Source: Gammaproteobacteria bacterium (GTDB taxonomy: Bacteria; Pseudomonadota; Gammaproteobacteria; UBA12402). Taken from it: a stretch of DNA of 64,000 nt. The position numbers and the translations under genes were made by a program. The stretch's first letter is position 1. Every line of letters begins with the position of its first letter. The stretch covers positions 792-64,791 of the forward strand of contig JASFHH010000005.1 in the NCBI GenBank assembly GCA_050123335.1, in the 5' to 3' direction. Below are positions 16,905-32,939 of the stretch, piece after piece. The notes under the pieces were generated by a model. It did not search any database and was not told where the DNA came from. It saw only the letters and a program-made list of their open reading frames with translations.

Positions 16905-17098
16905 TTTACACCTCCAATTATTCTTAAATTACGTTACACGCGTTACAGAAATCTTATTACAATTTTACATGTAGCAATTACATTATATACAAGAGAATCT
17001 TAACAAAAAAATATTTTTTTGATCTTTTCTGCGTTATTTTTAAACAGAATAATGATGAATCGCTTGTAGTTATTTGCTTATAATTTATTGCGCAGCAG

Positions 17099-17383
17099 TT
17101 ATAAAGAATCTGGTTTTTCCAACGACTTTTCCTTTTCAGTTGCAAGCCGGCGCTCGACTTTTTTAACATCTTCAGCAGCAGGAAGTGTTTCGGGTTGAAT
17201 ACCTCTTTCTAATAAAGTGTTACGAACTGCAGTATTGTTAGTGACGTGTTCTTTGGAAACTTCGGTTTCTGTTTTCATATTATGTTCTTTTTTATCTCGA
17301 ATAAGAGTAAAATTTTTATTTCCTCCAGTTTGCTCATAAATAGAGTTTATGTGCTGCAGCACATAAAATTTACGCGCGTGCAA
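17099..17383 (-). pseudogene. dinD: dinD (DNA-damage-inducible protein D) C-terminal fragment
   Basis: …KEHVTNNTAVRNTLLERGIQPETLPAAEDVKKVERRL… matches the DinD C-terminus. The DNA is ~85% identical to 20676..20880. Confidence 0.55.
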
Positions 17384-17684
17384 ATCTTGAAATGAAGCGA
17401 GCAGCGATTGAAAAGGTCAGCACTGCTCCTACACCAAAAATTTCCGCATGGAAAGAAAATAAATCGCTCTTATAATGGCTGCAATCATTATAAGGAATAA
17501 AACATGCGTTATTTAAATCGAGATCCACCAGCTTATATCCTAAATATCTAGAACTATAAAACTTGCAAAATAGACTTAAAAAGGATACATTATGAAAATA
17601 TTGTTAATCATTTCTCATCAAGAAGAAAAGCGTTTGTTGACATCATTAATATCAACAGGTTAAATCAAAAACAGGAACGAATTT

Positions 17685-18689
17685 GTGATGTGCAAATCGC
17701 TGAAAATTTTTGTGCTAAAATTATCATGCTTAATGGCGTTTTTTTATCTTGCGATTTTTAATAATGCTTTTGCTTCCAACAACCAAATAACAATTATACC
17801 ACGATATAATATGGAAATTTTCAATCAAAAAATAACGAATATTTACACAAATCCAATTGCTCATAGCAAGGATATAAAAAAAAGAATCAAAGCAGACAGT
17901 CAGCATTTTATCTACAAGTCTTATTTGAACGGAGCACTTGGGGAAGGACCAAAAGCATTGTTTGACAAAAGCCCTTTGTATAGAACGGATATGTTTGATT
18001 GTACTACTTTTGCTAGCACTGTTTTGGCTTTGGTAGAATCAAACAATTTAATTGAATTTAAAAAAAATATCTTAAAAGTTAGATACAAAAACAATGCGGC
18101 ATTATTCATTAATCGCAATCATTTCATCAGTGTGGATTGGAATATCAATAATGAAAAGCAAGGTTTTTTAAAAGACATTAACAGTAAAATTCTTGATGAG
18201 AAAGGAAATCCTATAGCTGTAACTGCAAACGCTTTTATAGATAAACCCAATTGGTATAAGCATTTGCGGGCAAGCACCATCAAATCATTTTATGCAATGC
18301 CAAAAGAGAAAGTAAAAATTTTATATAAAGCACTGCATGATTGCAGTTATAAAGTAAAACCACAGGCTAGCAAAATATTGTATTTGCCATTTAGCAAGCT
18401 ATTTACGAATGGTGCACCTAATCAACAACTATTTGATCAAATACCATCAGCAACAGTTATTGAAATTGTCCGACCAAACTGGAATTTAAAAGATATCATC
18501 GGAACCAATATTAATATTTCCCATATGGGGTTTGGTATCCGCATCAAAGGCAAATTGATATTTAGAGAAGCATCCTTTGTGGATAAAAAAGTTGAAGATG
18601 TCGACCTTGAAAAATATTTAGCGCAGTACCTCAACAGCTCAACTATAAAGGGAATTCGTGTTGAAAAAATTGTATTGCAACACCGATAA
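17685..18689 (+). CDS. Secreted hypothetical protein (signal peptide, 334 aa)
   Basis: N-terminal signal sequence MMCKSLKIFVLKLSCLMAFFYLAIFNNAFA. Lies between two dinD fragments and has no confident family assignment. Confidence 0.45.
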   Translation: MMCKSLKIFVLKLSCLMAFFYLAIFNNAFASNNQITIIPRYNMEIFNQKITNIYTNPIAHSKDIKKRIKADSQHFIYKSYLNGALGEGPKALFDKSPLYRTDMFDCTTFASTVLALVESNNLIEFKKNILKVRYKNNAALFINRNHFISVDWNINNEKQGFLKDINSKILDEKGNPIAVTANAFIDKPNWYKHLRASTIKSFYAMPKEKVKILYKALHDCSYKVKPQASKILYLPFSKLFTNGAPNQQLFDQIPSATVIEIVRPNWNLKDIIGTNINISHMGFGIRIKGKLIFREASFVDKKVEDVDLEKYLAQYLNSSTIKGIRVEKIVLQHR

Positions 18690-18789
18690 AAAGTGACACA
18701 TGCAGATATTATACGCAGTAATTTCACCTAAAGTCTGCATGAAATCTGGGCTTCCTTTTTACAGACCATTTTGTTGACGTCAACAAAAT

Positions 18790-18975
18790 GGTCTGTAGTG
18801 TTATGCTTGGAATTTGTACAGGCTGCTTTTGCTTTGGCTATAACATTATGGAAATTTCTCCATTCTTCATAACCTAACAATTGTTGCAGCTCACGTGCTA
18901 GCCAAAATTCTACACCGTCTTCAGTTTTTTGAGCATGTTCTTCAAAGTTATTTGTTAATGTGTAAATAAAAATCG
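18790..18975 (-). pseudogene. dinD: dinD N-terminal fragment (start codon mutated)
   Basis: DNA ~80% identical to 21390..21600, the 5' end of the dinD-like ORF. An upstream palindrome cagaccattttgttgacgtcaacaaaatggtctg parallels ccattttcctgacgtcaggaaaatgg at 21362. Confidence 0.5.
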
Positions 18976-18986
18976 TTTTAATTTTC

Positions 18987-20102
18987 TTAATGCCATCTAT
19001 ATCTAAATTTTAAATTATTGAATTTATTATATCCAATATAATTCATATGCTGAAGCCGTCCCACAAGAATGCCTGGGGCAATATTCAATTTTTTGGCAAA
19101 TTCAATAATCAGGGCGGTACTCAGTTTATCATTTTTCTTTAACCATTCATTTAAGCGTGATGAAGGGATTAAAGTTTCTGCTGCATATTTATCTGCTTCT
19201 AATTCTTCGGAAGATTTATTTACAGTCTTGTTATTTATTTCAACAAAAAATTCTTTTTTGCTGTGTTTAATTATGTGACCTATTTCATGAAAGATTGTGA
19301 ACCATAAAATGTCGGCTGTTTTACCTCTTAAGCTTAATTGAACTAATGCTTTTTCAGGATTCAACCAGCAAGAAGCTCCATAAATAGGAACTTTTGGAAA
19401 AGGCTTTATAAAGACAATGGCGATTCCACAATCAGCACAAATATTCTTTAATTTAGGAACAAATATTTCTGGATCTTTTTCTTTAGTAAGCGCGCGCATT
19501 TGATCGAGTGATGAAATTAATTTTTCTTTATCAAATAGTTTGCATTGAATTTTTTCTCCTTCAAGCTCTCCCTTTCTTAACCAAACGCTAATAGCACCAA
19601 TATCTGATTTTAGATTCATGGCTTTCCTAAATGCAAGCCGTCGCCGTGTCCATCCTTGTTCCCATTGCTCTGGTGTGGCTACTCCAAAAAAATTTAATAT
19701 GGCAATCATTTGCTCCGCAACAGTATCGCCACATTTAAGAAGCCAACCTCTTTTTTTCATTTCTTTGATTGGAAACTGCTTAAGCCAATCTTTTTCTGCA
19801 GTTAAACGTTCTAACTCTTTTTGCTGGGCAAGGTAAGCACGGTAATTGGCTTCTCTTTGATTCCAAAATGCAGCAGGAGTACCAAGTGCTCTTTCCAACT
19901 GAATAGCTGTCTCTGAAGTAATTGCGGCTTTACCTTTGATAATTTCGTTGATAGTTTTTAATGGGCGACCAATACGTTCTGCAAGCGCTACTTGAGTCAT
20001 ACCTCGTTCTTCAAGAATTTCAAGCAATGTTGCTCCAGGGGCAGAAACGATGTCTGGTTGGTAAAAAAGTTTACTTTTTTCAATCATGGGTATCCTCCAC
20101 AT
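18987..20102 (-). CDS. HigA-like XRE-family HTH antitoxin fused to ImmA/IrrE-family zinc metallopeptidase (COG2856)
   Basis: N-terminal HTH (LLEILEERGMTQVALAERIG…) and a C-terminal HEXXH motif (FHEIGHIIKH). Likely start at MIEKSKLF. Confidence 0.7.
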   Translation of the reverse strand: MWRIPMIEKSKLFYQPDIVSAPGATLLEILEERGMTQVALAERIGRPLKTINEIIKGKAAITSETAIQLERALGTPAAFWNQREANYRAYLAQQKELERLTAEKDWLKQFPIKEMKKRGWLLKCGDTVAEQMIAILNFFGVATPEQWEQGWTRRRLAFRKAMNLKSDIGAISVWLRKGELEGEKIQCKLFDKEKLISSLDQMRALTKEKDPEIFVPKLKNICADCGIAIVFIKPFPKVPIYGASCWLNPEKALVQLSLRGKTADILWFTIFHEIGHIIKHSKKEFFVEINNKTVNKSSEELEADKYAAETLIPSSRLNEWLKKNDKLSTALIIEFAKKLNIAPGILVGRLQHMNYIGYNKFNNLKFRYRWH

Positions 20103-20415
20103 TTATTATTTTTATAGCGTTAACTAAATTCCAATTTATTCCACCACCATCTTTTTTATTTATACTCTTATTTGTTGGTTCAAATATCAATCTTAATGGA
20201 TGTTCCAAATCAAGAGAAAGCAACCCTTTTTTATCACCTATTAGTTCGTGGCAACGACCTGGTAATGTCTTAAAAGCTTCTAAATTAGGAGCAGCTTGTA
20301 AATCATCAAGGCGCGCTCTAATCTTTCGGGCACAATTTTTACCATAAGTTTTAAGCAACTTTTTTTCTGAGTTACAGATTTTCTGAAGCTTTTTATTTTT
20401 AAAGGTGATCTCCAT
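20080..20415 (-). CDS. higB: HigB-like toxin (RelE/ParE superfamily, plasmid-maintenance killer type)
   Basis: …ARKIRARLDDLQAAPNLEAFKTLPGRCHELIGDKKGLLSLDLEHPLRLIFE… is the HigB/RelE-like pattern. Sits upstream of and overlapping the HTH gene. Confidence 0.7.
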   Translation of the reverse strand: MEITFKNKKLQKICNSEKKLLKTYGKNCARKIRARLDDLQAAPNLEAFKTLPGRCHELIGDKKGLLSLDLEHPLRLIFEPTNKSINKKDGGGINWNLVNAIKIINVEDTHD

Positions 20416-20548
20416 GTTATAAATGCGTCTACCCTTATTTTTATTAATAATTATTAAAAAGTGTAGTATAGATTTCGTGGCAAGTCAAATTATATTTAAC
20501 CTTTTGGGTTAAATATAATTTAGAAAATTCAACGTTTTGGGAATTATT

Positions 20549-20577
20549 TGGTGGAGGCGGCGGGAATCGAATCTGCG
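20549..20577 (-). other. Partial copy of the tmRNA (ssrA) 3' end: att-site remnant of an integrated element
   Basis: tggtggaggcggcgggaatcgaatctgcg vs the authentic ssrA 3' end at 32061 (tggtggaggcggcgggaatcgaacccgcg). Preceded by ttttgggaattattt, shared with the 21686 copy. Confidence 0.6.
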
Positions 20578-20628
20578 TTATAGCTTATTGATTTTTGAAC
20601 CGTGGAAACAATCATACAATTCAAATTT

Positions 20629-20652
20629 AACCCCATCGAATTCGATGGGGTT
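20629..20652. repeat. GAATTC-centred hairpin, copy 1 of 3 (others at 21807..21830 and 22059..22082)
   Basis: aaccccatcgaattcgatggggtt / aatcccgtcgaattcgacgggatt / aaacccatcgaattcgatgggttt. The stem changes are compensatory. Copies 1 and 3 are preceded by caaatttaa. Confidence 0.5.
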
Positions 20653-20675
20653 AGAATACTACTTTTATTATAAAG

Positions 20676-21582
20676 AATCCGGTTTTTCCAACGATTTTTT
20701 CTTTTCTGTGGCAAGCCGACGTTCAACTTTTTTAACATCTTCAGCAGCAGAGCGTTCTTCAGGACAAATGCCTCTTTCTAATAATGTTTTGCGAACAGCT
20801 GCGTTGTTAGTAATATGTTCTTGCGAGACGGCAGCTTCTGTTTTCATGTTATGTTCTTTTGCATTAAAAATAGTAATTTCTGTAGCAAAATCTTTAGCCT
20901 TTAAAATGATTGTGGGAGCAAAATCAGCTAAAGGGCGATTTTTTGCTGAAGGTCATTCATGACCTTCAGCCCTTACGGGGCGCACTTCGTGCGACAAAAA
21001 TCTGCAGTCCTGCAGATTTTTTGGAACATTCCATTGATCTTTCATTTCTTGAGTTGTTTTTCTAAAAAGTGAAAAATTACCTTTATCTCGAATAAGAGCA
21101 AAATTTTTATTTCCCCCGGTTTGTTCATAAATAGTTTTTGATAATTCTTTTTCGGTAGTAGCTAATTTTTTACGTGCGGAAACACGTTCAATCTCTAAGA
21201 GCTTTTGTTCAATTAATTCTGTTCGGCGGGTTTGTATGGCGAAGTAAGTTTGCGCAAAGGCAATTTCTGATTTCTTTGGATCGCCATTTTGTGCAATTAG
21301 ATAGCAAGCGTAGCGGGTAAGCATGATGTCGTTGACTTCGCGTTGGCTACCAGAACCCAGTTTGACCATTTTCCTGACGTCAGGAAAATGGTCTACGATA
21401 TTGTGTCCAGAAGTTGTACATGATGCTTTTGCTTTGACTATAACATTAAGAAAATTCTCCCATTTTTCATAACCAAGCAATTGTTGCAATTCGCGTGCTA
21501 GCCAAAATTCCACGTCATCTTCAGTTTTTTGAGCATGTTCTTCAAAGTTGTTTGTTAACGCATAAATAAAATCAGTTTTCAT
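20676..21582 (-). pseudogene. dinD: dinD-like gene disrupted by a ~180-bp palindrome-rich insertion (20880..21060)
   Basis: The N-terminal 175 aa match DinD (…WLARELQQLLGYEKWENFLNVIVKAKASCTTSGHNIVDHFPDVRKMVKLGSGSQREVNDIMLTRYACYLIAQNGDPKKSEIAFAQTYFAIQTRR…). The frame then runs into gaaggtcattcatgaccttc / cgcacttcgtgcg / tctgcagtcctgcaga palindromes, and the C-terminal coding segment resumes out of frame. Confidence 0.6.
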
Positions 21583-21685
21583 TGTTAAACCTCTATTTTT
21601 AATTTTTAAAATTATCAAACGGTAGATTATCGCAAATAAAAAAATTAAAAACTAGCGTAAAAACTACGGGGTTTTGGGAATTATT

Positions 21686-21708
21686 TGGGCGGTGGGAATC
21701 GAACCCGC
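21686..21708 (-). other. Second partial tmRNA 3'-end copy (att remnant)
   Basis: gggcggtgggaatcgaacccgcg, preceded by the same ttttgggaattattt as the 20549 copy. Confidence 0.55.
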
Positions 21709-22469
21709 GTTGTAATTTGTTGATTTTGGCGGTACAGCTATTGATACTACTAAAATGAGAAGTCAGATAGTCTGAACTGATCGGGAATTCCGAATAGTTG
21801 AAATCTAATCCCGTCGAATTCGACGGGATTAGAATACCGCGTGGGGACAATTTGTTCCTTGGTAGCTTGATCAATTGTAGACAAATTGTCGACGGTTTGC
21901 ACTGATTAAATTTAAGCCAAACGTTTTGCCGACGTCGTCAAAATGGTATAAATTATTGAGTAGCAGTTATAAAGAAATTCTTTACAACTGATCTCATTCA
22001 TCTGAAGTTGCGAAACAACCTGTTTCGCAATTACGAAAAAATTGTACAGTTCAAATTTAAACCCATCGAATTCGATGGGTTTAAAATCAGTATTATTAAG
22101 TTGGTTCCAAAATACCCAAAAACTTAATCGTATTGCGATTTTGCAACTTGCTAAACTCAGAAAACAGAAGGTGTTTTAAAAAACCGAAAATACTTATTTA
22201 TTGAAAGTGATTATTAATTATTAATAAATTTAGTGAAATAAAGGATTGTATTTTCTAAATATTGAGGTAGAATAATCGGCCACTGGGAGATTTGTTCAAA
22301 ATCTCACCTGCCAAGAATAATAAAATCATAAAATAAGGTTCAGGCATTTCTCTTGAATTGCTGTCAGATATGGATATTCCTTTTGAACATGGAGCGCATT
22401 GGTCGCTTATTTTCTTAATAGAGTTAATTAGTAATCTAAAAAATTTAATAGTTTTAGGAGAAGAAATAT

Positions 22470-23195
22470 ATGTTTATTGTTGATGAAAAGCAAAAAAAAG
22501 AATGGAGAGGTATACAGTGTGTATTAACTTCGCCTATTGCGTTGTCCTATTTAATTTTGATGTTATTCGCGGTTTTTTTGGCAAATTTGTTTAATGATAT
22601 AAGAGTAATTCACTTAATGTGTGTAGCTGCCTGTTCAATTTCCGCTGGGTTTTTTGGTAGTAAATGGCAAGAGATTGTTAAACAAAGCGAAAGTGATGAA
22701 ACTATACTTTCGCGAGGACAAATGGCGATACGACGATTAAATAACTTATTATCAAATCTGAAAACAACTATTGACACAATTGAAAAATTTCTGGAATTTC
22801 AAATTGAAAATAGCGATAAAAACGCTTTAAAAATATGGTTAGAAAGCTTAGTAAGACAAGTAATTATGATACAAAAAGAAGGCGTAAGTGCTATTGAGGA
22901 TTGGGGTGATTTAATGCCAGATTATAATGTTAAAAAACATGTTGATCTTATAGGAGAATTACGTAGTGATGTTTTAAAAATTAAGAAAGAAAAAGAAGAA
23001 ATAGAAAAGAATAAAGTAATTGAGTCAGAAGAAAAAGAAAATAAAATAAAATATTTAACGAAAGAGTTAGAGATAAAAACAGCAGAGTTACAAGAAGAAC
23101 AACAAAAATTTAACGCATCGCTTTTTGGAGGATTAGATTTTGGTACAATTGATAAGAAAAGTTATTCTGAGCTGCTTTTAGATCTTAAACAATGA
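22470..23195 (+). CDS. Membrane-anchored coiled-coil protein (241 aa), first gene of a putative three-gene Abi-like module
   Basis: Two predicted N-terminal TM helices followed by a Glu/Lys-rich coiled coil. Layout is reminiscent of 2TM effector-associated domains. Confidence 0.45.
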   Translation: MFIVDEKQKKEWRGIQCVLTSPIALSYLILMLFAVFLANLFNDIRVIHLMCVAACSISAGFFGSKWQEIVKQSESDETILSRGQMAIRRLNNLLSNLKTTIDTIEKFLEFQIENSDKNALKIWLESLVRQVIMIQKEGVSAIEDWGDLMPDYNVKKHVDLIGELRSDVLKIKKEKEEIEKNKVIESEEKENKIKYLTKELEIKTAELQEEQQKFNASLFGGLDFGTIDKKSYSELLLDLKQ

Positions 23196-23229
23196 GATTT
23201 TTTAAGAAATTTTTAAATGAGAGGAAAAC

Positions 23230-24057
23230 ATGAGCAAATGGGATCAAATTGTTACTAGTGATGTTAATGATAAAACAGAATTAAAAAATTTAGAAAATGA
23301 TTATGCAAGAGGAGAGTTTTTGCAGAATATGTTAATTAGTACGGCTACAGGCGGTCAATCTCAGAGAGATGATCAATACAAAAAGTTAAGAAGATATTTC
23401 ATGGAAAGTGAACATGCCAATTTATTGCCTTTTTGGGTTAAGAGTAATAGAGATCTGGGAAGTTTCTGGCCATTTATACAAGAACAATTTTCAACTTATC
23501 GAGAAAGACGCGCTTTTATAAGAACAGAATTTGATCGTTTATTGAGTGCACTAGAAGCAAATTGTACTTGTCTGATTGTTGAGTCTGTTAATTTAACAAT
23601 GCGGCAGATAACACATGCAAATTTAAATTCATATTGGAATAAGGCTATAAAAAGAGTAGGGACTGATCCAGAAGGAGCTATTACAATAGCTAAAACATTA
23701 TTAGAAGGGAGTTGTAAGGAGATACTAGATCGTCAATGTGTAGAATATGATGATGACAAAATAACATTACCAAAATTATATAAAATAACAGCCAAATCAT
23801 TACAACTACATTCTACGCAACATATTGAAAAAATTTTTAAGAGTATCTTAGGTGGTTGTTCTGCGATAGTTGGAGGACTTGGCAATGTTAGAAATGAGCT
23901 TGGTGATGCACATCATCGTAAAATAAAACCATTACGTAGACATGCTGAATTAGCTGTTAATATGGCGGGGTCGATGGCAAAATTTTTATTTCAAACTTTA
24001 GAAGACAGAATGGAAATTAAAAAAGGAAAAAAACAAAGCAACGATAACATTAATTAA
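23230..24057 (+). CDS. HEPN/Abi_C-domain protein (AbiJ-like abortive-infection family)
   Basis: C-terminal Rx6H HEPN-type motif within GLGNVRNELGDAHHRK. Overall resembles Abi_C (abortive infection C-terminus) proteins. Confidence 0.55.
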   Translation: MSKWDQIVTSDVNDKTELKNLENDYARGEFLQNMLISTATGGQSQRDDQYKKLRRYFMESEHANLLPFWVKSNRDLGSFWPFIQEQFSTYRERRAFIRTEFDRLLSALEANCTCLIVESVNLTMRQITHANLNSYWNKAIKRVGTDPEGAITIAKTLLEGSCKEILDRQCVEYDDDKITLPKLYKITAKSLQLHSTQHIEKIFKSILGGCSAIVGGLGNVRNELGDAHHRKIKPLRRHAELAVNMAGSMAKFLFQTLEDRMEIKKGKKQSNDNIN

Positions 24058-24186
24058 TTTGGAATATACGCTATTTAAATTTATTTTAGTAAAAAAATAT
24101 GTAAATTTTTGGATTGTAAGAAAAAATGATAAATTTAATATAAAGCGTATCTTATTAATATATTAGTTTCAAGTAAAGGTATTTAC

Positions 24187-24816
24187 ATGATTTGGTCAAA
24201 AATTTTAACATTTTCTAATATAACCAGTATTATTGCAGTTATAATTAGTTTTATTTCTATTTTGATTGCTGGTTTTTCTACTTGGTGGCAATTTCTTAGA
24301 AGGCCAAAAATTAAAGGCATTTTTTCTGAGATTGCATTTGAAAGGCAGGGTGGTGGATATAAACCAACGAAGTTGAGTAATATTGTCGAACCATTCTTTA
24401 TATTAAAAAACATAGGAGCAAGATCAGCAATAGTTGAAAATATAAGATTAAAATTTTTTTTTGATGGAGAATCTTTTTACGCATATCCTTATTTAAAACC
24501 AGCAGAATCGATAGTTACTTGGGATGATCAAAAAGTAAAAAGACATTTTGTTGGTTTAATTTTGCCGTTTAACGAATCTTGGAAATGTGATTTAAAATTC
24601 AAATTAACAAATAAAAAGGATTTTTCTAATATAGGTAATCTTACAGGAACAGTTTTGTTGGAACTAAAATTTATTAAAAAAGGTTGGGTTATGGTAGATA
24701 CAAATACTTCCAATTTTTCATTTACTCGTGAGGAGATACAGATAGATGAGTCTTGGAAAAGGAAATCTGATTTTTATTCAAAAAAAATTTTTAAAAATTT
24801 TAGATCAAATTCATAA
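24187..24816 (+). CDS. Hypothetical protein with N-terminal TM anchor (209 aa), third gene of the module
   Basis: Hydrophobic N-terminus ITSIIAVIISFISILIAGFSTWW. Co-directional with the two preceding genes with short gaps. Confidence 0.4.
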   Translation: MIWSKILTFSNITSIIAVIISFISILIAGFSTWWQFLRRPKIKGIFSEIAFERQGGGYKPTKLSNIVEPFFILKNIGARSAIVENIRLKFFFDGESFYAYPYLKPAESIVTWDDQKVKRHFVGLILPFNESWKCDLKFKLTNKKDFSNIGNLTGTVLLELKFIKKGWVMVDTNTSNFSFTREEIQIDESWKRKSDFYSKKIFKNFRSNS

Positions 24817-25124
24817 CAAAGCAAATATTGGCAACATATCATTGGTTGATCTGATATATATGGTTGGAGCAGATATTCTTTAGAGCGCAATATAAAGCAA
24901 GATTTGTTTGTTGTACAGTTTGTACCTCAAAATAAAGTATATAATTGCTAAGATGATATTTGCTATGGATGAATGCTATTAATGTTGTTAATATCTGGCA
25001 GAGAAAGATCAGAACTAGTATTTTAAAATCGTCGCTATCAATCTATAATTAGGTTTGGAATTCATAACTTAGTTAAGCGATATTGCTGTAAAATGTTGCC
25101 ACAAACACCTTCATTAGAGTATAA

Positions 25125-25364
25125 AGTGGTCAACCCACGTATTATTCGTCAAACACCGCAACTCATTTGTTGCGCGCAGACGTTGATGTCAATACAATTA
25201 GAGCTTGGTTTGGTCATGTCTCAATTAATACAACCAATATTTATGCTGAGGTTGATATTGAGATGAAGGCTAAAGCGTTGGCATTATGTGAGATAGTAGA
25301 AATTAAACAAAAACTAAATTGTAATTATAATAAAAGTTTAAAGGGTTTTTTAGATGCCTTTTAA
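25125..25364 (+). pseudogene. int: Tyrosine recombinase/integrase C-terminal fragment
   Basis: …TATHLLRADVDVNTIRAWFGHVSINTTNIYAEVD… is the catalytic tail of phage-type integrases (H-x-x-R…Y region). An upstream in-frame stop leaves only ~80 codons. Confidence 0.65.
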
Positions 25365-25392
25365 TGTTCAATTATATAAATGAGAGTAAATA

Positions 25393-26309
25393 ATGATTAA
25401 AAATGTTCGCAAAAAAAACATCATTACTTAGCAAGAGTATACCTAAATGGTTTTTGTGATCAGAATAATATGGTTTGGTCATATCATAAAGATGATCTTT
25501 CAAAAATACATTGTCAAACACCAGACAATACAGCAATTGAAAAAAATCTTTATGCTGTGGATGGAATTGATGTTAATGTGTTTGAAGACTTTTTATCTGA
25601 CCAAATAGAAAGTCCAGCAGTAAATGCATTAAAGGAATTACAAAAAGGTCAACTGCCATCAAATAATGATAGACTTGTTTTAGCAAAATTTTTTGGCTTC
25701 ATGTTAGTACGAACTCCGTCATATAAGGCTTCTAATGAACAGCCATTTGAGCGTGAATCTAATATGTTACTAAAATTATACGTACAACATAAAGAGTGTT
25801 TTCAAAATTGGTGTAATAAATATGAAGGAATCAATAATCAACCTATAGCTAAAGATATTGAGCGACTAAGGCAAGAAATCTTAAATGGAAAATACATACT
25901 AAAACCACATCATAATTTTAGTCTTAATACTATAGGAAAATTGGGTTTAAGCATTGATTCTTATTTATTAAATATGAAATGGATAATGATAAAAGCACCC
26001 AAAGGTTATTTCTTTTTAACTTCTGACAATCCTGTTATTATCACAAATCCAGAGTGCAATGGATTTTATTCAACAGGATTAGGACAAGAAAACACTAGAG
26101 TTTTTATCCCAATTTCAAAGGAAATTGGTCTTCTTATGGTTAATTTAGATATTGATGGTTTTGACAATCAATCAATTGATAATAATAGTGAGATTGTAGG
26201 GCATATGAATAAAGCAATCATTCTGTTTGCATCCAAATTTATATTTAGTCATAAAAAAAACGACGACATTACACAATTAATAAAAAAAGTAACTGAAAAT
26301 AAAAATTGA
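25393..26309 (+). pseudogene. DUF4238-family protein, frameshifted in an A8 homopolymer near the 5' end
   Basis: ATG at 25393 (MIKNVRKK…) hits a stop after 12 codons. One extra or missing A in aaaaaaaa (25411-25418) restores …KKHHYLARVYLNGF…, the DUF4238 N-terminal HHY-x-x-x-YL motif. The downstream body contains the DUF4238 hallmark TSDNPV. Confidence 0.6.
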
Positions 26310-26479
26310 AATTATGTGTTGTAGACAGGGCAAAGTCGTTTTTCATCCTGTGTATGCGATTTTAAAAGCGCATTTACTTTTTTACATGTTTATAAAAGAT
26401 ATTAGTGTGACCTATACAGTTTAATTGAGCGGCGACTACTTAACGTTTGGCTTAGTGTTGCATGGATAAAGGCTTTTGG

Positions 26480-26940
26480 TTATTTACTTTAATTAGTTGC
26501 CCCCCAGACTGCCCCCCCCCTGAAATTGGCTTTGTTTTGCAAAAAACAAAGGTAGTTTATTCTATTTGCATTTTTCTTATCAATCTGAGATACTAAAAAC
26601 GTGCTAGTAACACACATGCAAAGCGGTAAAACTGCGTCCGATAACCGCGGTTTTTTTGTACCTAAATGTCGGGCGTTCGTTGGAATACAATACCCTTGGG
26701 AAATACAGCGAGCCACGCTTTGCAGTGGTTACTAACGCCTGACACCAATTAAATTTGGGATTATTAGTAAAATTGCAAAGGAGTAAAATCATGTCACATA
26801 TTTCAAAAAAATTATCTTTATTTATCAATAAGTTAATTGATGCAGAATAGTAAAAGTCTTACACAACAATCAGATGTTTTTCGGTGGTTAAAACATGCTC
26901 AATCATCCATAATTACTATGCGCAAGCTTTCTGAGGAGGA
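26480..26940 (+). other. Structured non-coding leader with poly-C tracts, long-range inverted repeats and a 19-codon ORF with strong SD
   Basis: gttgccccccagactgccccccccc (C6 and C9 tracts). The 22-nt arm gtgctagtaacacacatgcaaagcgg (26601-26626) is complementary to ccacgctttgcagtggttactaac (26712-26735). Hairpin ctttgttttgcaaaaaacaaag. aaggag-N7-ATG at 26791 gives MSHISKKLSLFINKLIDAE*. Locally GC-richer than its surroundings. Confidence 0.3.
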
Positions 26941-26942
26941 AA

Positions 26943-28289
26943 TTGATGACTGCGAAAATACATCAACCAGCGTGTGAATTGACTGAAGGCTGTTGGGTTG
27001 ATTTTAGAGAAATGGTGCAACAAGTTGAACCGGAATTGTTTGACATCATTGAGAAAATAAACCCAAATAAAGAGCACAAATTAATTAAAGCCAGATATTT
27101 ATATGGCGAGCAAATTACTGATCTTGGTACCATTTGTGTTCCAGATAAATTTGGCCGTTTAGTACGTTTAGATAACGCTAATGTCTCCAGTGAGTTGCAA
27201 GATCAATTGGGCTATTGTCCTACGCCGCTAGTTTTGCAATTAAAAAATGCTGGTGAGGTTTTTGTTGAAACAGAAGATCGCATCGCGCCATTAAATATTT
27301 TTATGCCGGGGGATATGTACGGGTTATATGAAATTTTAGTTCCGCTTTCTGGTTGTCCAGCCGTACCTTGTTGGAGTATTACATCCGGAGGCAGATCGGT
27401 ATTTTTAGCATCTAAAATTACCGATGCAATCGGTCACAAAAAATTGCGTAAGGAATTTGGTGTATCACCAGTTCCACCGAAAAACATCAAAGATCAATGG
27501 GCAACTATGAAAACTATTGCTAACCGAGGCAGAAAAGATAATCCTTGGTCATCAGAAATATTAATTTTTACCAAAGAATGGTTTACCGAAAAAGATGACG
27601 ATATTAATTGGATGAGATTTCAAAACTACTTGATGAAAAAAGCGTGGTGGCAATCTCGAAGTACTCGCGCACAAATTGAATATAGTATTATGTGGGAATC
27701 TTTTGCTAAAGCAGTGTGTGCTAGAAATTTAAAACCTAGTTCTTATATTGTTGATACAGTAAAACATTTAATGCTATTAACTGCTGGCACAACTCCCGGA
27801 TTTAAAGCGATTGATACCAGTGAAAACATCATGCCGTCAAAGATTGTAGAAAAAGCATATACGGACATTTACGGTTTAAAAGATTATGCGGCCATTATTA
27901 TGCATCCTCACGTAACTAAATTAAATAGTCATGATGAGCAAGTTTATTACTCGATGGCCTATCCTACTTTAATTTCCGGCACGCCGTCTATTCGTAAAAA
28001 CACAAACACCATGACTGAAATTCGTGACGTGCAGACATTGATGAAAATGCTTGAAAAAATATTATCTTCTTATGAAGATCGTGTTCATAATTCAATGAAA
28101 AACGTTAAGTTTGAATATTTTCATAGTGATGAAGATCGTTTTGGGGAAATCCTAAATAGCCATAGCATAACTAAAACTGATGCGGCAATCTTAAATATTT
28201 TAAACGAACGTTTTCCTGGTAAAAAATTTCCTTCATACGGTTCATTTTTCAGAGGGTGCATTAGAATAAGCAGGAAGAATGTTGGTTAA
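26943..28289 (+). CDS. Hypothetical protein (448 aa), convergent partner of the rSAM-Nudix gene
   Basis: Long ORF with no recognisable motifs. Its 3' end overlaps the 3' end of the opposite-strand rSAM-Nudix gene by 48 nt. Confidence 0.5.
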   Translation: MMTAKIHQPACELTEGCWVDFREMVQQVEPELFDIIEKINPNKEHKLIKARYLYGEQITDLGTICVPDKFGRLVRLDNANVSSELQDQLGYCPTPLVLQLKNAGEVFVETEDRIAPLNIFMPGDMYGLYEILVPLSGCPAVPCWSITSGGRSVFLASKITDAIGHKKLRKEFGVSPVPPKNIKDQWATMKTIANRGRKDNPWSSEILIFTKEWFTEKDDDINWMRFQNYLMKKAWWQSRSTRAQIEYSIMWESFAKAVCARNLKPSSYIVDTVKHLMLLTAGTTPGFKAIDTSENIMPSKIVEKAYTDIYGLKDYAAIIMHPHVTKLNSHDEQVYYSMAYPTLISGTPSIRKNTNTMTEIRDVQTLMKMLEKILSSYEDRVHNSMKNVKFEYFHSDEDRFGEILNSHSITKTDAAILNILNERFPGKKFPSYGSFFRGCIRISRKNVG

Positions 28290-29978
28290 AAACATTTTTT
28301 TAGTTGTAGGAAATAATTGTAACGTTAACAAATTCTCTGGCGAAAAATATTTGTATTCTGCAATTTCTCGCTTGTCAATTTTGTATTTGTTTTTACAGCC
28401 ATTGTTTTCTGCAATCCACCAATGCAACTCATCTACATCGTAATCAGCATTAGATGTGCCTATTTTTTTGATGGGAATTACCGCTAAACCAAGCTCCTCA
28501 TGAGCTTCTCTGATAACTGCTGCTTCCTCTGTTTCACCTTGCTCAATTTTGCCATGAATGGGTGCCCAATGATCTTTGTATGGCTTTTTATTTTGTTTTA
28601 CCAACAGATATTTTCCGTTTTGTATAATAACTATAACTACACCCGAACGTTTTTTATCGGATACACTTGCCACATTAACTATGTCACCTTGCATATAACG
28701 TTCATATTGTTTTTTAGTTAGTGGAATTTGCATAATTTTGTTAGCATTCATACAAGCTTTATCATTGGATTTTTCATTGGTTAAATAGACATGCGCTTTA
28801 GTAAAATTAAAATTGGCGTTTTGCTTTAGTAAAGCTACGATGTTTGCAAAACTAATGTTATTTTCCTTATCGATGCAAAATTGACAGTTTTTTGGAATGT
28901 TTTTTTGAAAATCTTGGATGTGGCTATTATTTTTCAATAAAGTTGCTATAGATTGAGTTTTATCATTTATTGTGCCTATTTTAGCTTTTGGCATTATACC
29001 ATTGCGAGCTAGGCAACATAATTGTAATGATAAATCGGCTAATATGATAAATCTTAATCGTGATATCCAGCAGAAATTAAAATCATCTTTTGGTTTGAAA
29101 GATATTCCATATTGTTTTTCAATAATAAAATCTCTTTTATCTTTGATGTTTTGTTTGAATATATTTATTTGATTTTCAACAAATGGAATGATTTCAGGGT
29201 GATCATCGTAAACTTTTCTACAAATATTTTTTCTAATAGCAATCCAGTTAGCCCCCACATCATACATATCACACATAAATTTACTGATGTTGCGATAATT
29301 TTCCGGAAGCATAATAAAGGTAGCACCAATAAATAATTCTTGTTCTCTATTAAATTTAATAGCCTCAACATGAACCGTTTTTATTTTCTTAATCAAGTTT
29401 TCGTAATTATGTGCCTTATCATTTGATTTATGAACTTGATATCTGGAATTATTATCAAAAGAATCAACACTAATTCGTAAATGATGAACGTAGTTAGCAA
29501 TAGTTTTAATAATATTGCCTTGTAATAAATCACCATTCGTTTCGACAGTAATTTTTAATTTTAAATCGGCTAAATATTTTATAATTTCGATAATTTTAGG
29601 ATGATTTAGAGGATCACCACCACCAGTTAATCTAACACTTTTTCCACCTAAATTTTTGAAATCATCAAAGATAGATTTAAGTTGGTCTAATGGCAATGTT
29701 GAATTTAACTTGGAATTTAATTTCTTTGAAAAACACATGATGCAATTATTTGAACAGTTACTAGTAACATCAATATCTAATCTTATAGGCGATAAAGTTT
29801 GATTAAAATATGCGCTTTTTATCGCTTTTATCCACTCATCTAATTGCTCAGGAAACATCTTAGCGTGATTTTGGTAAAAAACATATGTCTTAGCATTACA
29901 TATAGCGCATATTGCATTCCATTTGCCGTATTGTCGATTAACAAGAATATTTTCGTGGTAATTGAAAACCATCTTCAT
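28242..29978 (-). CDS. Radical SAM (SPASM/twitch-like) enzyme fused to a C-terminal Nudix hydrolase domain
   Basis: CX3CX2C motif (CSNNCIMC) with a downstream GGGDPL SAM-binding motif. Additional Cys-rich region (CWISRL…LCCLARN…CQFC). Nudix box GKIEQGETEEAAVIREAHEELGL at aa ~470-495. An N-terminal CxxC pair is also present. Confidence 0.75.
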   Translation of the reverse strand: MKMVFNYHENILVNRQYGKWNAICAICNAKTYVFYQNHAKMFPEQLDEWIKAIKSAYFNQTLSPIRLDIDVTSNCSNNCIMCFSKKLNSKLNSTLPLDQLKSIFDDFKNLGGKSVRLTGGGDPLNHPKIIEIIKYLADLKLKITVETNGDLLQGNIIKTIANYVHHLRISVDSFDNNSRYQVHKSNDKAHNYENLIKKIKTVHVEAIKFNREQELFIGATFIMLPENYRNISKFMCDMYDVGANWIAIRKNICRKVYDDHPEIIPFVENQINIFKQNIKDKRDFIIEKQYGISFKPKDDFNFCWISRLRFIILADLSLQLCCLARNGIMPKAKIGTINDKTQSIATLLKNNSHIQDFQKNIPKNCQFCIDKENNISFANIVALLKQNANFNFTKAHVYLTNEKSNDKACMNANKIMQIPLTKKQYERYMQGDIVNVASVSDKKRSGVVIVIIQNGKYLLVKQNKKPYKDHWAPIHGKIEQGETEEAAVIREAHEELGLAVIPIKKIGTSNADYDVDELHWWIAENNGCKNKYKIDKREIAEYKYFSPENLLTLQLFPTTKKMFLTNILPAYSNAPSEK

Positions 29979-30239
29979 TACCTTTATTTTTCAATGCCTT
30001 ATAGCGATGTTACTGGCAGTTTCTTGTTTTTTGAGTAAATCCAAGCCAAATGTAACATTTTTGTGTTGAAATTTCGATAACAAAAATAGCGTTTGAATTT
30101 AGATTATCAATCTTATTTTGAAGAAGCTATCATTAAGTTGAGTAATTAATATGCAGGAGTATTTTTAACCGATTCATCTGAAAAAAATAATAGCAAAAAC
30201 CACATTCAGGAAGAATCTTAATTTACAAGGAGAAATGTT

Positions 30240-30728
30240 ATGTTAAATCAACGAACGGATGGTTTTTGGATTGGGAGTGATTCGATGGTTTTTGGCAATA
30301 ACAATCGCAAGATTTATAAAGACACAGAAAAATTTAAAATTTTGTTAATCGAAGATGATGAACTTATTAGCAAAATCAATTTAACTTTTTTAAAACAACT
30401 TGGTTATGACGTGGATGTTGCGCGGAATGGTTGTCAAGCTATTAAGTTTTTAAAAAACGATTACGATTTATTTTTACTTGATGTGGGCTTACCTGATATC
30501 TATGGGGTGAGAGTGTGCGAAATAATAAGAACTATACCAAAATTTTTGCACACCCCCGTGATTTTTCTAACAGCCTTTGGGGAGGGGCTTAAAGCAGAGT
30601 GTAAAGCTGCAGGTGGTAATGATTTTGCGATGAAGCCATTACCAATGGAAGAATTAAAAAATTTGGTTGATAAATGGCTGCTTGATAATAACAACAATTC
30701 GGAAGCAAAATATGGATGCAAGGCTTGA
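30240..30728 (+). CDS. Stand-alone response-regulator receiver (CheY-like) domain protein
   Basis: …KILLIEDDELI…DLFLLDVGLPDIYG…VIFLTAFGE…KAAGGNDFAMKP… carries the receiver-domain Asp and Lys signature. The start may be the M at 30286. Confidence 0.6.
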   Translation: MLNQRTDGFWIGSDSMVFGNNNRKIYKDTEKFKILLIEDDELISKINLTFLKQLGYDVDVARNGCQAIKFLKNDYDLFLLDVGLPDIYGVRVCEIIRTIPKFLHTPVIFLTAFGEGLKAECKAAGGNDFAMKPLPMEELKNLVDKWLLDNNNNSEAKYGCKA

Positions 30729-31070
30729 GTTACAGGATATTATTGATGAACATTTAACAAAAACACACGCTATATTGAATTGCTTATTAGCAGCATGGAG
30801 CAGCGACCATCATGTTGACCAGGATACTATTTTTCACGCGCTTTGGTCGATGGAAGATCATTTATTGGAAATTAAGAAATATCGGGATGCATCGTCTAAA
30901 AGGGGAAGGCAGCATTAATTCTTTTGTTGCATTTCAACTGTACGAAAACATCGTGCAGTTGAAATCGCGTAAATTTAAGTAAGCATTTTGTTAGCATCAA
31001 CAAAATAGTGGGGTTTTGATTAATAAGCTTTCTAAACGGTGTAGATGATGAAATGGCAAGTTTATAATCA

Positions 31071-31946
31071 CTAATTTCCGAGAAATGCATTGTGAACTTG
31101 TGTATTAATTTTTTTACATTCTTTTAGCCTGGATTGATAAAAAGGTGAGTTTTTAATTTCATTAGCTAGCTCATATTTATTAATTTGTTTCCAAGAGAAA
31201 TTAATTTTTGCAATTATCTTTGGTGTAAAGCTTAACATGATTACAAGACTGGTAATTCCAACTAATGTCGTTCTTTTTATGACAATAGCAAGAGCCTTAA
31301 CAAGTTTGGTATATATTTTTTCTATTTTATTAATTAAGTAACGAGGCTTCAGTTTATGATGCTTAGCAAGTTTGTAAATAGGATTTATATAAAACCACCA
31401 GTTGGCAAAGATAGTAATTAAGAAAAAGCTGCTTAATAGAATCCATATCAGAATGTTGTGAGGGTGTAATGTAATGGTGCCAACTTCTAGAAAGTTAGCA
31501 TAGAGCAAGTCTGCGATAATAAAGCATGGAAACGCAAGAGCGGCATATAGTTTAACTGCATAAAAAAAACTGCTTAAAATCAAGTGTTTTATAACAGATG
31601 GTTTATGTTGATAGTAGATATAAAACGATAAGGTTATTAATAGAGAAAAAGCCAAACCAAACAATAAATTATCAAATAGAATAGATACACCAATCCTCGT
31701 TACACTAATAAGTTCATGGAGGTTTATGTGTAGTGAAAAGAAGATTAGATTATTAATCAAGAATAGTATTACATTGCCAACGATAAGAGCTGCTAACAAT
31801 ATTCGTACAGACTCTTTAACTTCTTGTTGTAGATTCGATTGATGATGAATGCAAGGGTGGGTATAAAAATTCAATAATAAAGAGATATATTTTGCGGGAT
31901 CACTGAAGAAGATCTCATTTATAATATTTATGATTTTATTGCTCAT
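31071..31946 (-). CDS. Polytopic membrane protein (291 aa), hypothetical
   Basis: At least six hydrophobic segments. Adjacent to the ssrA 3' end. Confidence 0.4.
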   Translation of the reverse strand: MSNKIINIINEIFFSDPAKYISLLLNFYTHPCIHHQSNLQQEVKESVRILLAALIVGNVILFLINNLIFFSLHINLHELISVTRIGVSILFDNLLFGLAFSLLITLSFYIYYQHKPSVIKHLILSSFFYAVKLYAALAFPCFIIADLLYANFLEVGTITLHPHNILIWILLSSFFLITIFANWWFYINPIYKLAKHHKLKPRYLINKIEKIYTKLVKALAIVIKRTTLVGITSLVIMLSFTPKIIAKINFSWKQINKYELANEIKNSPFYQSRLKECKKINTQVHNAFLGN

Positions 31947-32060
31947 AAAAATTGCTCCAAGTTGGAAATTAGTAGAGAAGATTATTAGCTGCGTAAAATT
32001 ATAAGAAGTTGATCTTTTAATGCAAGCTGTTTAATTATAGATTGTTATGGAAAGGCAGTT

Positions 32061-32417
32061 TGGTGGAGGCGGCGGGAATCGAACCCGCGTCCGCGAACTC
32101 TCCGCCATCGGTTCTACATGCGTAGCTAATCATTAAATTTCATTATTTGCTGCCCGATTAGCAGGGATCACAAATAACTAGCCTAAGTTAAATTTAGCGG
32201 TATTGCCTTAGGCGCACTTTACCGCGAGCTTATGAAATATGACCATCAGATTCAAGCGCATAAGCACACTTGGGTGATGGGCTGTGCCTGTTTAAGCGGC
32301 GACAGCGTAAAGTTCGTCGTTTGCGACTACTTTGTTGCAGCATGATTTACGAGGTTAAGCTACGTCCTCGGCATGCCCCTTTGGTTTTGCAATCCACGTC
32401 GAAGCCGGGTCGCCCCC
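32061..32417 (-). ncRNA. ssrA: tmRNA (ssrA)
   Basis: The 5' end GGGGGCGACCCGGCTTCGACGTGGATTGC… pairs with the 3' end …GCGGGTTCGATTCCCGCCGCCTCCACCA. Internal tag reading frame GCAAACGACGAACTTTACGCTGTCGCCGCTTAA gives ANDELYAVAA*. Confidence 0.85.
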
Positions 32418-32468: not shown

Positions 32469-32939
32469 TCAATGCCTTTTAAGTGCTTGTTCTTGCTGGC
32501 GTTTCCAGTCGCGGTCTTTGATGGTTTTGCGTTTATCGAACTGTTTTTTACCCTTGGCCAGGCCAATCTCGCACTTGACGCGGCCGTGTTTCCAGTATAA
32601 AGCTAAAGCGACTATGGTATAGCCTTTACGTTCAACGGCGCCGTATAGTTTATTCAATTCTTCTTGATTCAGCAGTAGTTTGCGGGTGCGGGTTGGATCT
32701 GGTTGTATATGAGTCGAAGCGCTGCCTAGCGGAGTAATATGACAGCCAATCAAAAAAGCCTCACCTTTTTTGAGCACAACATAACTATCCCGCAAATGCA
32801 CTTTTCCAGCGCGCAAGCTCTTAACTTCCCAGCCTTCTAAAACTAATCCAGCCTCAAAGCGTTGCTCGATAAAATAATCATGCTTAGCTTTTTTGTTAAT
32901 TGTAATAGTTGCTGGCGATGTTTTTTTCGTTTTGCTCAT
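32469..32939 (-). CDS. smpB: SsrA-binding protein SmpB
   Basis: …[28 protein letters not shown]…[19 protein letters not shown]… is canonical SmpB, directly adjacent to ssrA. Confidence 0.95.

Follow-up and report, generated by a model that had tools for sequence, protein, structure and literature searches.

Escherichia coli DinD is SOS-induced and has been reported to inhibit RecA. Williams is said to have described tandem islands at ssrA, the gene for transfer-messenger RNA (tmRNA), with displaced fragments of its 3' end ('Traffic at the tmRNA gene', J Bacteriol 2003), and the Trb-2 island of Legionella pneumophila Corby lies in the tmRNA gene as well. P4-like satellites or integrative elements, as Rousset et al. 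reportedly found in 2022, carry a variable defence hotspot beside the integrase. Here we set beside these systems a group of dinD-like genes in a 64,000-nucleotide stretch of contig JASFHH010000005.1 (assembly GCA_050123335.1), hereafter the window. The DNA is AT-rich, Legionella-related and from an uncultured gammaproteobacterium; its best DinD homologues come from 'Gammaproteobacteria bacterium' and L. pneumophila. The dinD pieces are held in ~15 kb of accessory DNA between the end of a microcompartment (BMC) operon at ~16.1-16.4 kb and the tmRNA gene. Our analysis suggests that 17.1-32.06 kb is probably a fossil tandem array of islands that integrated successively in the tmRNA 3' end and that is now without an integrase.

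The intact tmRNA gene is on the minus strand at 32061-32417 (ARAGORN and Rfam, 219 bits), adjoined by the SmpB gene (32469-32939). Position 32061, its 3' end, is the site of integration; accessory DNA begins at 32060. The tmRNA 3' core occurs exactly three times in the window, each time in the same orientation, where 0 are expected by chance. Two of these are displaced copies, 29-32 nt long with 1-2 mismatches in 21 nt: an attachment-site (attR)-like core at 21679-21710 and an older core at 20547-20578 that is 94% identical to 32059-32090 (both minus strand). In gene orientation, each displaced core comes after the island right-end motif AAAATCAAYAARYTAYAA (21710-21727 and 20578-20595, respectively), which is not part of the tmRNA. 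After each comes a ~95-nt leader, AAATAATTCCCAAAAC...GTAGTTTTTACGC, and then a dinD gene. The leader between the younger core and its gene, dinD-2 (~96 nt, 21583-21678, minus strand), also follows the tmRNA end in two related loci, L003 and L002 (L-numbers denote loci of other genomes or contigs, and P0001-P0003 are DinD homologue proteins). The second gene, dinD-1, is ~81% identical to dinD-2, and each is 82-89% identical to orthologues in other genomes. This closer likeness to foreign orthologues fits separate acquisitions rather than local duplication. A candidate origin of the leader as a remnant of the L. pneumophila integrase flanks was rejected, as only the tmRNA core matched.

The same junctions were found in other genomes. 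In L003, an intact tmRNA gene is followed after 92 nt by dinD. L002 has a core fragment, then an insertion sequence (IS), then dinD; the same succession of end motif, core and leader occurs twice there, at two fragments, and in L. pneumophila Corby the upstream motif can be recognised as well. The leader of L002 also stands before a remnant of a gene of another DinD subfamily. What lies between the tmRNA gene and dinD or the BMC operon is entirely different among the P0001 contig, L002, L003 and the window. We found an intact element with integrase and dinD, the form that the earlier note on this DNA suggested searching for, in L. pneumophila Corby (L032, CP000675.2, 207598-228434). There, the order is a 29-nt tmRNA 3' fragment, a P4-type integrase, dinD 22 nt further on, AlpA and a primase. 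The DNA just upstream of the fragment carries an AbiEi/AbiEii pair, together with the integrase end of a conjugative element. Because these adjoin the tmRNA fragment, the integrase and dinD, the Corby locus is a tandem array at the tmRNA gene in a cultured species. Among 119 other loci with enough upstream DNA, dinD had no link to integrases or to tRNA or tmRNA genes, so the tie of dinD to integrases and tmRNA was not seen outside Legionellales. Another cassette array punctuated by dinD was observed in metagenomic DNA (L082, 1-7769), where one intact dinD and two dinD fragments lie amid a Fic gene and two AbiE-like pairs.

The island array is real but ordinary, a textbook case. Like the tandem islands described at ssrA, it shows 3'-end integration that restores the gene, direct repeats at old boundaries, and serial islands with accessory and defence cargo. 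Its differences are the lack of an integrase in the window, units cut down to 1-3 kb, and a DinD-family gene that comes first behind a conserved leader. In the literature we found no description of a DinD-family gene and leader as the start of tmRNA islands. Of the features of a tmRNA island, the 3'-end insertion, the direct repeat (attR) and content that varies among close relatives are present; an integrase by the attachment site is absent from the window. The likeness to P4-like elements lies in L. pneumophila, where dinD stands right after a P4-type integrase with AlpA and a P4-alpha-like primase, and in the match of DinD to PDC-S13. The window differs here too, as it holds no integrase, AlpA or primase, and membership of its units in that group is not claimable. 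With respect to E. coli DinD, the window genes exceed the NF008573 cut-off and E. coli dinD has a palindrome at the same codons. The E. coli protein belongs, however, to another subfamily, like the second Bro-N gene of L003, and is ~34% identical to the window protein; its gene is not adjacent to tmRNA or an integrase.

All three dinD-like stretches match the NCBIfam model NF008573 (DinD; curated whole-protein cut-off, 242 bits) significantly and at the expected model positions. The alignment of the DNA copies gave identities of 80-92% and E-values down to 2e-58. A C-terminal fragment aligned in two blocks, 17099-17291 with 20668-20860 (81%, E 1e-48) and 17291-17343 with 21082-21134 (92%), and an N-terminal fragment aligned at 18764-19018 with 21364-21615 (80%, E 2e-58). 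The pieces are thus present near where the earlier note had placed three copies, but judged from the alignments they are most simply two genes plus small remnants. Neither gene has an open frame: dinD-1 has an ATT start and missing codons, and dinD-2 has an in-frame TGA.

dinD-2 (20668-21582, minus strand) is, by its translation, its NF008573 match and its homologues, a full-length DinD gene inactivated only by a 78-nt insertion. Its 305 codons lie in one frame that is interrupted by one TGA (20953-20955); the frame had been called broken, and we found no shift but only this stop. Without the insertion, the product has 278 aa, equal in length to P0001-P0003 and 87-90% identical to them, and scores 358 bits against the cut-off of 242. 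Just 3' of the gene is a GAATTC-centred 26-nt perfect hairpin that is terminator-like (20628-20653); other GAATTC hairpins are at 21804-21833 and 22056-22085. Each dinD copy had been said to lie beside a partial tmRNA end and/or a GAATTC hairpin. The two displaced cores and the hairpins are real, but neither feature was found at the 17099 fragment.

A 30-nt perfect palindrome lies within dinD-2 at 21364-21393, over the codons D-H-F-P-D-V-R-K-M-V. Its general form, D-H-F-x-D-V-x'-K-M-V, occurs at codons ~64-73 of dinD-family open reading frames (ORFs). We compared 129 distinct sequences from the window, its relatives, L. pneumophila, 160 metagenomic or viral loci and E. coli dinD; the covariation counts take related sequences as they stand, with relatedness uncorrected. 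Pairing was found at 92% of positions, compared to 82.8% in shuffles (0/500 shuffles reached the observed value), and slid controls paired at no more than 53%. Changes on both sides were observed in 11/15 pairs. The x and x' codons covary (GTT/AAC, GCT/AGC, CCT/AGG, GCC/GGC, CGT/ACG and GCG/CGC), and paired switches occur from CAT..ATG to CAC..GTG and from GAC..GTC to GAT..ATC. E. coli dinD keeps 13/15 pairs with a different sequence and different amino acids. In 116 distinct ORFs, synonymous-codon entropy was ~0.8-1.07 gene-wide and low only over the motif, at 0.08 for H, 0.22 for V, 0.27 for F and 0.28 for K. Truncated dinD copies break at the palindrome edges in at least four independent cases: the N-terminal fragment in the window (18764), L002 (~2946), L082 (7257) and L093 (186). 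This clustering of truncation ends suggests that the palindrome is a fragile or recombinogenic site. The start of contig L181 is also at a palindrome edge, within a codon or two. In L064, an isolated palindrome (5856-5879) lies ~145 nt upstream of dinD and is identical to the internal copy of that gene, which recalls paired operators.

The dinD palindrome is under constraint at the nucleic-acid level, and the breakpoints cluster at it. The data agree both with selection, on a hairpin, a cruciform or a protein-binding site, and with a purely mutational process in which quasipalindromes are homogenised by template switching. We propose only tentatively that the palindrome is a functional nucleic-acid element, for instance an operator, a recombination site, or a structure such as a hairpin or cruciform, and that it is perhaps a fragile point for the exchange of island cassettes. 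Free-standing copies bear on this point. One (21922-21947, repeat family D4, in the right arm of the youngest island, island B) is joined to a remnant of a dinD 3' end with 20 nt of downstream sequence (21947-21976, minus strand; 90% identical to 17079-17108 and matching the end of L003). Another (30984-31009, D4, no strand assigned) is a possible dinD remnant by synteny with L002, which has an intact dinD at this place beside the same cargo block. The palindromes at 21922, 30984 and L003 3696 share the flank TAAATTTAAG (21908-21947, 30970-31009 and L003 3690-3731), and those at 21922 and 30984 form direct repeats at the two ends of the 9-kb island B cargo, like a second att-like pair. One palindrome-directed process may join the truncations, the free-standing copies around this cargo, the palindromic junctions and possibly the hairpin insertion in dinD-2. 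We found no paper that describes a palindrome or hairpin in dinD, nor a relevant one on dinD in defence.

The hairpin-rich insertion in dinD-2 (20938-21023) comprises a 70-nt element (20946-21015) between direct repeats of ATTTTTTG at 20938-20945 and 21016-21023. Set against the uninterrupted dinD of L003 and L002, the breakpoints fall at 20945 and 21015-21017, and where the gene is uninterrupted the two flanks overlap by 7-9 nt. This gives an insertion of 78 nt (26 codons), made of the 70-nt element and the 8-9 bp duplicated target ATTTTTTG. A length of 180 bp had been given; the remaining ~144 nt are ordinary dinD coding sequence, which every homologue has and which the 17099 fragment has lost by deletion. 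On the plus strand, the order is ATTTTTTG, the hairpin CTGAAGGTCAT-TC-ATGACCTTCAG, CCCTTACGGGG, the hairpin CGCAC-TTC-GTGCG, ACAAAAAT, CTGCAG-TC-CTGCAG and ATTTTTTG again. The palindromes that the earlier note listed exist and are perfect, but the insertion does not consist only of them, as linkers are present and the ATTTTTTG direct repeat flanks it. The 70-nt element makes up four hairpins, the insertion folds far more stably than shuffled sequence (z = -4.85), and it has 54% G+C compared to ~35% locally.

The identical insertion sequence was observed in an independent Logan contig (L029, from SRR11697952), and a JGI contig (3300042731) encodes the same truncated 209-aa protein. Because the same insertion is in two other assemblies, it is not an assembly artefact. 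Both contigs, L029 at its start and the JGI contig at its end, break inside the hairpins, and both come from short-read assemblies; such hairpin elements may be systematically lost at contig ends.

The target duplication ATTTTTTG favours transposition, and the 70-nt element is most likely a small non-autonomous mobile element whose transposition we infer. Two observations speak against this, the lack of a second copy and the weak termini. A search of the 64-kb window with each hairpin, at up to 3 mismatches, gave no second copy, and none was found in IMG/VR or, by blastn, in plasmids and phages. The element termini, CTGAAGG and CCTGCAG, are inverted at 6/7 nt, which is weak. In the GTDB representative genomes, hairpin 1 had 25 unrelated single matches without common flanks, and in 1.5 Mb of fetched loci only L029, the same locus, matched the element. 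An Rfam scan of 20400-22200 at permissive E-values gave no RNA family. A link to the IS in L002 was rejected, as the element ends are unrelated to that IS, and so was a patchwork of local sequence, for which no such local source was found.

That the insertion is instead filler DNA, left by break repair through repeated fold-back or template switching of the kind that would also have made the palindromic junctions of dinD-1, is a possibility we doubt but take seriously. Such repair would account for the lack of another copy in anything searched. It would also fit the right end of the insertion, where an inverted copy of the target (ACAAAAAT) by a CTGCAG core is followed by the target again. The junction of the C-terminal dinD fragment (17335-17367) has the same layout: CATAAA, then TTTATG, TGCTGCAGCA and CATAAA. 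This junction contains a 22-nt perfect palindrome, TTTATGTGCTGCAGCACATAAA (17346-17367), in which two copies of the neighbouring native CATAAA, one inverted and one direct, flank a CTGCAG core. The palindrome of the N-terminal fragment is lengthened by 4 nt copied from the other arm. However, most of the 70 nt, namely hairpins 1 and 2 with the G+C content given above, is without a template in the window, and an 8-9 bp direct target duplication is the usual mark of transposition.

Taken as a mobile element, the insertion resembles miniature inverted-repeat transposable elements (MITEs), Rickettsia palindromic elements (RPEs), Neisseria Correia elements and the repetitive extragenic palindromes and mosaic elements known as REP and BIME: it is short, hairpin-rich and intragenic, its length is a multiple of 3, and it has a target duplication. 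The target-site duplication of MITEs is present here as ATTTTTTG on both sides. Unlike these groups, it is single-copy in everything searched, only 70 nt long and with very weak terminal inverted repeats; it adds a stop codon and has no similarity to any collection searched. An RPE leaves the host ORF open, whereas the element here spans 26 codons but contains a TGA. REP and BIME are extragenic and highly repeated, whereas this element is intragenic and single-copy.

The other gene, dinD-1, is in two parts. The N-terminal part (18764-18982, minus strand) covers codons 1-73 with 94.5% aa identity to P0001 residues 1-73. Its start codon is mutated to ATT (18980-18982), as the earlier note had read it, and it stops exactly at the palindrome, which is here a 38-nt perfect palindrome (18760-18797). 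The C-terminal part (17099-17343, minus strand), assigned by its NF008573 match and alignment to homologues, covers codons ~150-278 and has a 144-nt in-frame deletion at an A-run microhomology. Codons 74-149 are replaced by a foreign 1.4-kb segment (17344-18763, plus strand) with an AmiA-like amidase gene at 17685-18689 (Pfam PF07313, E 3.6e-36); a look-up of the genomic contexts of this amidase gene elsewhere returned no record. The dinD-1 leader holds a cassette (18987-20415, minus strand) assigned from Pfam and leader homology, with a HigB-like gene and a HigA-like gene (helix-turn-helix plus M78 peptidase). The HTH_3 domain scores 47 bits, above its cut-off; the HigB-like toxin scores 21.5 bits, below its cut-off of 27. 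Leader remnants flank the cassette at 20521-20546 and 18984-19018.

Because the two fragments do not overlap (residues 1-73 and 150-278) and are collinear on the same strand in the correct order, they are probably one gene rather than two copies. Both also rank their relatives alike, with L003 closest, L002 next and then the long copy. In the P0001 contig, the closest relative with context, a single intact dinD abuts the BMC operon in the position of the C-terminal fragment. This one-gene view rests on parsimony rather than proof. The fragments may instead be remnants of two different dinD copies, with at least three dinD islands below 21.7 kb, a reading that we consider unlikely. It draws on the 1.4 kb of unrelated DNA that separates them, on the lack of an att core between or beside them that would tie them, and on the N-terminal fragment being 94.5% identical to P0001 while the C-terminal fragment is less similar. 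The order, strand and shared ranking just described stand against it, as do the presence of a single leader remnant and a single downstream end.

What we observed directly are the homologies, the breakpoints, the att-like junctions and, in L. pneumophila, the intact form. From these, we propose an order of events and an integrase-mediated origin. With each arrival, the tmRNA gene would have gained a new 3' end from the incoming island, and the earlier island would have been displaced outward, with a 29-32 nt copy of the former end left in front of it. Islands of this family would start on the tmRNA side with the ~95-nt leader and a DinD-family gene and would end with AAAATCAAYAARYTAYAA. The DinD-family gene, which the earlier note took to be the terminal gene of the element, is indeed part of the repeated unit, but it is the tmRNA-proximal, first gene of each. 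In unit 1 (20578 to 17079), the HigBA-like cassette would have entered the leader and the start codon would have been lost; codons 74-149 would have been exchanged for the segment with the amidase gene, and 144 nt would have gone by slippage. Unit 2 (21710 to 20579) would have kept a full dinD until the 70-nt hairpin-rich insertion, with its 8-9 bp target duplication, killed it. The youngest island, B, would have lost its dinD almost entirely. Loss of the integrases would have left the array immobile now.

The three cores, the shared end motif and the leader with dinD support repeated integration at tmRNA, but the following points weigh against it. No integrase or recombinase was found among the island ORFs or in the 64 kb (Pfam, NCBIfam, PHROGs and tblastn), so mobility in the window is inferred; tblastn of two Legionella integrases against the whole window likewise gave no match. 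Close relatives with tmRNA, leader and dinD show no integrase either, so that dinD could be an old chromosomal neighbour of ssrA in the clade, and island B begins with a different sequence after the tmRNA end. dinD might instead be an ancestral gene downstream of ssrA, with extra copies arising by local tandem duplication of the ssrA 3' end and dinD followed by divergence and decay, and with no dinD islands. This would agree with L003, where dinD directly follows an intact tmRNA gene with no integrase, with the P0001 relative, where a single dinD lies between the island zone and the BMC operon, and with the lack of an integrase in the loci of this clade. We consider it quite improbable. The copies are ~81% identical to each other and up to 89% identical to orthologues elsewhere, a conserved right-end motif that is not tmRNA sequence precedes each core fragment, the same leader precedes a gene of a different DinD subfamily in L002 and L003, and in L. 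pneumophila the fragment, integrase and dinD lie within an obvious P4-like island.

We consider it very unlikely that dinD-2 is still functional, either through a tolerated in-frame element of the Rickettsia RPE kind or through readthrough or recoding of its TGA: the insertion spans exactly 26 codons and the gene is otherwise free of lesions, but the TGA sits within a perfect arm of hairpin 1 and so is intrinsic to the element, gene callers end the protein at 209 aa, and recoding was rejected because L003 dinD stops with TGA at the homologous position, which makes TGA a stop in the clade.

Island B (21711-32060, minus strand) was characterised from its ORFs and their Pfam, PADLOC and NCBIfam matches, and has no integrase. 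Its cargo includes a 291-aa membrane-like ORF, a response regulator, a radical-SAM/NUDIX fusion (pVip-like), a 448-aa ORF, DUF4238, an AbiJ-like protein and others. The block at 27895-30962 is 82% identical to the one after dinD in L002. The cargo of the array is defence-type (AbiJ-like, DUF4238, pVip-like and HigBA-like), and DinD matches PDC-S13, a candidate defence family in PADLOC. The fusion (28242-29978, 578 aa) joins a radical-SAM domain with a weak PADLOC pVip match to a NUDIX hydrolase, is conserved in L002 and a JGI contig, and may be a defence gene. In a PADLOC scan, the DinD-like P0001 and L003 2714-3571 matched a model of the Type I specificity subunit over its N-terminal ~265 positions. 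By implication, HsdS carries a fused DinD-like domain in some systems. In the whole window, 30 palindromes are perfect over arms of 9 nt or more, compared to ~3.6 in shuffles, and 12 of the 30 fall in the 5.6-kb dinD zone (16.5-22.1 kb). Distant from this zone, at 60304-60382, is a perfect palindrome of 79 nt, whose 39-nt arms flank a centre of 1 nt.

Overall, the idea of the earlier note was broadly right, and its anatomy is corrected here. The array is useful mainly as a worked example of the decay of tmRNA-linked defence islands, and it shows a DinD-family gene as the conserved first gene of such islands in Legionellales. The parts that go beyond the textbook situation are the orphan hairpin insertion and the dinD palindrome. 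The 70-nt four-hairpin insertion, with no known relatives, may be a first sighting of a very small mobile element or the footprint of hairpin-driven repair. The biology of dinD, a classic SOS reporter gene, is poorly understood. The palindrome, unreported so far in the literature we found, is general: it is kept in dinD genes of prophages and of bacteria from E. coli to Legionellales, and a structured element within the gene, if there is one, would be directly testable in E. coli.

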